Below are positions 21,702-21,914 of a stretch of 64,000 nt of DNA, in pieces. The translations under genes were made by a program, and so were the position numbers. The notes under the pieces were generated by a model. The model was not told where the DNA came from, did no database searches, and saw only the letters and a program-made list of their open reading frames with translations. Positions within the stretch are counted from its first letter, which is position 1. Each line of letters opens with the position of its first letter. The stretch comes from Escherichia coli (GTDB lineage: Bacteria; Pseudomonadota; Gammaproteobacteria; Enterobacterales; Enterobacteriaceae), in the NCBI RefSeq assembly GCF_003334305.1, contig NZ_QOWS01000013.1; one strand, 5' to 3'.

Positions 21702-21914
21702 CATCTTTTATCGGAGACAGGAAGAGTTTAGTGTGTTTTTTGTAAAATAATGCGCTTAAGGGAGAGCAGGAGAAGGCAAAAGTATTCAACAAATGAAAGT
21801 GAATTGGATATTCATTCACGTGATTAGCAATAAACGTTGACAAAATGTGGCATGGATCACTATAATGCCTGCAGATTTTACGTCCCGTCTCGGTACACCA
21901 AATCCCAGCAGTAT

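Follow-up and report, generated by a model that had tools for sequence, protein, structure and literature searches.

The ArgR operators of Escherichia coli at argF, argI, argA, argD, argECBH, carAB P2 and argR are built from an 18-bp palindrome with TGAAT-like and ATTCA half-sites around a 4-bp A/T-rich centre; they are paired, the two boxes lying 3 bp apart (2 bp at argR), and they sit on the promoter. Single ARG boxes bind ArgR weakly. For the argG-metY region, the work of Krin et al. (2003) and Charlier et al. (1992) is said to describe one CAP site and a distal ArgR site in addition to the tandem boxes of the argG promoter. In tandem operators four subunits of the ArgR hexamer occupy the box pair, and a site that stabilises ArgR is located about 90 bp from the ARG boxes (PMC4381063, citing Krin et al. 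2003 for the latter). Down-regulation of metY by cAMP-CAP and by ArgR (PMC3017606, summarising Krin et al.), three ArgR binding sites in the region upstream of metY (PMC3334882) and a single CRP site at metY-argG (PMC3105977) have been reported as well. A related arrangement has been described at argC of Bacillus subtilis, where, in a proposed model, one hexamer of AhrC contacts two promoter boxes together with a distal single box (PMC3293853).

We analysed the argG-metY locus in a window of 64 000 nucleotides from an E. coli genome. Over the 501 bases around the element of interest the window shows 100% identity to many E. coli chromosomes that are annotated there with argG and tRNA-Met, and the argG/metY arrangement in the K-12 MG1655 record matches that of the window (K-12 coordinates are obtained as 3340248 minus the window coordinate). 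The divergent intergenic region is 347 bp long and differs from K-12 at four positions only. It is the same locus as in the work of Krin et al. and Charlier et al., and the site positions predicted below fit that description; the RefSeq K-12 record carries no annotated regulatory features there. Within this region an earlier note had pointed to a palindromic ARG-box-like element about 190 bp upstream of argG, possibly an auxiliary ArgR site or a site for a different regulator acting on argG or on the divergent metY promoter.

We counted as an ARG box any imperfect palindrome of 18 bp that fits WNTGAATWWWWATTCANW and has 4 bp between its half-sites. In the K-12 control regions of carAB, argF, argA, argR, argD, argECBH and argI the best tandem pair of 18-mers was sought for each operator, which gave one pair each, 3 bp apart (2 bp for argR). 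A symmetrised weight matrix was made from the 14 boxes of these seven operators, with argG left out, and the whole window was scanned with it. All of the reference boxes (16/16) were recovered with the 4-bp spacing. In leave-one-operator-out scoring bona fide boxes had scores of 3.2-22.3, with 14 of 16 at 12.1 or higher. The features that matter here are as follows.

20268..21611, minus strand: argG, argininosuccinate synthase, with its ATG at 21611
21663..21680: ARG box 1 of the argG operator (score 19.8, rank 1 in the window)
21684..21701: ARG box 2 of the argG operator (score 13.3, rank 4 in the window)
21739..21756: an additional 18-mer resembling an ARG box, TTTGTAAAATAATGCGCT (rank 9 in the window, score 10.8), without a tandem partner
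21800..21814: the TGAAT-N5-ATTCA palindrome of the earlier note, which needs T at 21804, a minority allele
21803..21820 (K-12 3318445-3318428): box 3, predicted single distal ARG box, ATTGGATATTCATTCACG, in the canonical register AT-TGGAT-ATTC-ATTCA-CG
21816..21823: the TCACGTGA palindrome, overlapping the right edge of box 3, with a G/A polymorphism at 21820
21837..21866, plus strand: metY promoter P-1, TTGACA, 18-bp spacer and TATAAT, with start A at 21873
21846..21861: CRP-like site TGTGGCATGGATCACT within the spacer of P-1, centred at -19.5 relative to the P-1 start
21914..21943, plus strand: proximal metY promoter P0, TTTGCA, 18-bp spacer and TAGAAT, conserved across genera
21959..22035, plus strand: metY, initiator tRNA-Met gene

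Boxes 1 and 2 form a tandem with a 3-bp spacer that overlaps the predicted argG promoter: the hexamers of that promoter, ATGAAA-17-AAAAAT (PMC3946193), are found on the minus strand beneath the two boxes, at 21696-21691 and 21673-21668. On the other side of the region the metY promoters P-1 (TTGACA, 18-bp spacer, TATAAT, +1 adenine after GCCTGC) and P0 have been mapped (PMC6511841). Two positions in these promoters are polymorphic, 21852 (A/G; in the N6 of the CRP-like site and in the P-1 spacer) and 21921 (C/T; in the P0 spacer); they are the same two differences that distinguish K-12 from MRE600 (PMC6511841). A reading of the flagged site as an RNA element was rejected, as Rfam gave only the tRNA and the rimP leader as matches on the locus. 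The rimP leader (RF01770, 102.8 bits) lies downstream of metY, at 22124-22224, and terminator-like hairpins are seen in its region at 22157-22180 and 22205-22217.

Box 3 scored 12.4, which placed it fifth among 63 983 window positions and third in the intergenic region; 13 of the 16 specified positions of WNTGAATWWWWATTCANW match, and by sequence it qualifies as an ARG box. The strain analysed has T at 21804 and G at 21820, where K-12 has C and A; the K-12 allele, ACTGGATATTCATTCACA, scores 17.3. When 21702-21958 was dinucleotide-shuffled, scores as high as the maximum observed were reached with P = 0.04 (window allele) and P = 0.002 (K-12 allele), so that the score of box 3 is above what local composition would give. 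We consider it likely that the flagged element is a single isolated ARG box at 21803-21820 with the usual 4-bp spacer, the distal third ArgR site of argG-metY, putatively bound by arginine-loaded ArgR. The palindrome, the half-sites and the A/T-rich centre are those of the operators named at the outset; box 3 differs from them in being single and off the core promoter. The 18-mers 2-4 bp to either side of it had scores from -24.3 to +2.0, and no tandem partner was found among them. A complete ArgR operator at this place was rejected accordingly, with neither a partner nor an overlap with a core promoter. Box 3 starts 101 bp after box 2 of the tandem argG operator, and it is centred at -61.5 relative to the P-1 start of metY and at about -150 relative to the predicted argG start.

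The letters described in the earlier note are all present: TGAAT at 21800-21804, TGGAT at 21805-21809, ATTCA at 21810-21814 and TCACGTGA at 21816-21823, and the element lies 189-212 bp upstream of the argG ATG. The observation was literally correct, then, but mis-registered. The 5-bp spacer that it ascribed to the ARG-like half-sites appears because the wrong left half-site was chosen; the canonical box with a 4-bp spacer uses TGGAT instead. The two registers corresponding to the earlier reading (starts at 21798 and 21799) had matrix scores of -8.2 and -2.8, too low for an ARG box. The proposal of an auxiliary ArgR site for argG or the divergent metY is thus supported in its core, given the fifth-best match in the window and the three ArgR sites in the literature, but not in its register and spacer.

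One could still maintain that ArgR uses TGAAT and ATTCA half-sites 5 bp apart as a non-canonical site. The exact TGAAT-N5-ATTCA pattern has a single occurrence in the 64-kb window, where 0.12 would be expected (at least one match was seen in 12 of 100 shuffles), and an ad hoc matrix widened to 19 bp by an additional column at its centre ranked 21798-21816 first in the window, with a score of 12.3. Against this, no reference box departs from the 4-bp spacing, a shift by five bases to the right, into the canonical register, accounts for the sequence with no special assumption, and the left half TGAAT is present in at most ∼3% of E. coli genomes, the rest having TGAAC. We regard a 5-bp-spacer site as very improbable indeed.

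The element differs between strains. In K-12 MG1655, C at 21804 turns the left half-site into TGAAC and A at 21820 turns TCACGTGA into TCACATGA; each of the changes breaks one of the palindromes. Among six further E. coli strains, 21804 was C in all six and 21820 was either G or A. The exact 62-mer of the window at 21775-21836 is present in 164 of 5352 complete E. coli genomes. Within box 3 the polymorphic sites are position 2, an N in the consensus, and position 18, where G lowers the score; the 14-bp core at 21805-21818 is invariant in seven E. coli strains. Both palindromes are by-products of two strain-specific substitutions at non-critical box positions 2 and 18. The adjacent TCACGTGA palindrome of the earlier note does exist; however, it occurs once in the window with 0.95 occurrences expected, which is chance level and therefore carries no statistical weight, it is polymorphic, and it is broken in K-12. 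As a meaningful palindrome it was rejected.

The possibility that box 3 itself resembles an ARG box merely by chance, as AT-rich intergenic DNA may do, with no ArgR binding or function, has to be weighed against these data. The P-value of 0.04 for the window allele is modest, similar scores were found at 52990 and 53069 in an unrelated AT-rich region, box 3 has no tandem partner and is not conserved outside E. coli (see below), and polymorphisms are seen at both of its edges. On the other hand, the majority allele, of the K-12 type, reaches 17.3 with P = 0.002, a bona fide operator is only 101 bp away, three ArgR sites and ArgR control of metY have been published, and the 14-bp core is invariant in the strains sampled. 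On balance we find a chance match unlikely.

The region at 52932-53086 deserves a separate remark. It is very AT-rich and has three ARG-like 18-mers (10.4, 14.1 and 13.6) within 155 bp, upstream of an open reading frame of 194 aa on the minus strand (52364-52948). This cluster is most likely an effect of base composition.

If box 3 is an ArgR site, it is almost certainly a known kind of site that has already been described. RegulonDB reportedly lists an ArgR site TGTGAATGAATATCCAGT, the reverse complement of K-12 box 3. A full-text search of the literature with the sequence of box 3, in both alleles and on both strands, returned no match. Primer argRmetYp2 of the study that reported three ArgR sites upstream of metY (PMC3334882) maps to about 21643-21668, just outside box 1; therefore, the three published sites should be the tandem pair and one more. 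Judging from its position and from the listed site, box 3 is very probably this already reported third ArgR site of argG-metY.

Alternatively, the third site of the literature could be the 18-mer TTTGTAAAATAATGCGCT, which is situated between box 3 (6.1 helical turns away) and the tandem operator. It starts only 37 bp after box 2, whereas box 3 starts 101 bp after it; the published distance is about 90 bp (PMC4381063). In shuffles, the second-best hit of the region reached 10.8, the score of this 18-mer, at a frequency of 0.002.

We also considered that a different regulator (CRP, Fis or Fur, for example) might use the TCACGTGA symmetry or a GTGAAT-N9-ATTCAC symmetry and act on P-1 of metY. The element occupies -50 to -75 of P-1, a typical activator zone. 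A part of it, ATTCATTCA, is common to E. coli and Salmonella, and ATTCATTGA to Citrobacter, 18-20 bp upstream of the -35 hexamer of P-1, which is not so for the full ARG box; 12 of 19 Fur-box positions match when compared by eye with the consensus. Still, TCACGTGA occurs no more often than chance predicts and is not intact in K-12 and other strains, and the consensus searches did not point to CRP or Fis. Allowing at most two mismatches, no match to TGTGA-N6-TCACA was found inside 21790-21825, and the CRP reading of the flagged element was rejected; the sole intergenic match is TGTGGCATGGATCACT, at 21846-21861. Its center is 42 bp, or 4.0 helical turns, from that of box 3. Matches of this quality are not rarer than chance in the whole window (22 found, 27 expected).

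For Fis, the consensus GNNYAWWWWWTRNNC had no match with one mismatch or fewer anywhere in 21612-21958. The described Fis site in the metY upstream region ends ∼5 nt into primer p1nusAinfB (PMC3334882); from the mapped primer its position is about 21872-21890, which is downstream of P-1 and beyond the flagged element, and the Fis reading was rejected too. The suggestion of a site for a different regulator was therefore not borne out by any CRP or Fis consensus match inside the element, and such a regulator seems to us quite unlikely.

To see how the ArgR sites fare in related bacteria, we compared the argG-metY intergenic region with its counterparts in Salmonella enterica, Klebsiella pneumoniae and 14 other enterobacterial groups; the genus Escherichia was represented by E. 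coli only. All 17 of the other enterobacterial sequences aligned have boxes 1 and 2 conserved. The leader, P0 and, in most sequences, a P-1 of the TTGACA/TATAAT type are conserved too, whereas the stretch 21750-21835 is not. A complete box 3 was seen in E. coli only; Salmonella, Klebsiella, Citrobacter and 11 further groups of enterobacteria are without it, so that it is not conserved in the orthologous control regions. In Salmonella and Citrobacter just the ATTCATT(C/G)A part is present, 20 bp upstream of the -35 hexamer. Where E. coli has the 18-mer at 21739, Kluyvera has a strong third box (15.7), as well as a near-perfect CRP site in the P-1 spacer, and Citrobacter has an ARG-like 18-mer (10.8) over the -10 hexamer of P-1. 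As the distal boxes differ by lineage, they appear to turn over while the tandem operator stays fixed. From these alignments the predicted distal box is specific to the Escherichia lineage, as sampled by E. coli, and the CRP-like site is apparently specific to it as well.

Several other features of the region were noticed in the course of the comparison. Most enterobacterial genera share a conserved block consisting of GACAGGAAG followed by (T)TAGTG, at 21717-21737, some -56 to -76 from the predicted start of argG; it is a poor match both to CRP and to ARG sites. Phytobacter, Enterobacter sp. ENT03, ‘Escherichia’ sp. ESNIH1 and Enterobacter sp. Bisph1 share an extra segment of 30-50 bp, GAGACTTAACAGCC(A)CGCCATG..., between the argG ATG and the ARG boxes, i.e. 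in the argG leader; E. coli and other genera are without it. In E. coli VTB97074v an IS21-family element (istB is annotated) ends at a junction at ∼21822, the right edge of the element studied here; box 3 and everything towards argG have been removed from in front of metY P-1, which makes this strain a natural deletion.

If ArgR does bind at box 3, the arrangement suggests how the sites may work together. One ArgR hexamer would place four subunits on boxes 1 and 2, over the argG promoter. Box 3, at a distance of 119 bp from box 2 and of 140 bp from box 1, could be contacted by the other two subunits of this hexamer or by a second hexamer, with formation of a DNA loop that would stabilise repression of argG. 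The B. subtilis argC system has the same combination of a high-affinity pair and one remote single box, which suggests a looped hexamer complex; it differs in the organism and in the orthologue of the regulator, AhrC instead of ArgR, and its distal box is inside a coding region, while box 3 is upstream, beside the divergent promoter of a tRNA operon. The helical phase counts against simple looping, box 3 being offset from boxes 1 and 2 by about one third of a turn.

The same loop would bring ArgR to -61.5 of the strong P-1, where the C-terminal domain of the RNA polymerase alpha subunit contacts the upstream region, and on the same face of the DNA as the CRP-like site at -19.5. Arginine, through ArgR, and cAMP, through CRP, may in this way jointly down-regulate P-1 of the metY-rimP-nusA-infB operon. 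A position of ArgR near the -35 of P-1 and on the same face as CRP would fit the reported influence of ArgR on CAP-mediated repression of metY.

One could also speculate that the lineage alleles (21804 T and 21820 G, carried by ∼3% of complete genomes) constitute a regulatory polymorphism, in which a weaker position 18 and an overlapping alternative left half-site, TGAAT, would shift or loosen ArgR binding beside metY P-1. We think this highly unlikely; if true, the polymorphism would alter, in this lineage, the coupling of arginine and cAMP to expression of the initiator tRNA, NusA and IF2.

Correction of the register removes what had looked like an odd spacer, and what is left is an ordinary finding that raises no new question. 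As the likely distal ArgR site, box 3 would be part of a documented, though little-known, link between arginine (ArgR), carbon (cAMP-CRP) and the translation-initiation operon metY-rimP-nusA-infB.
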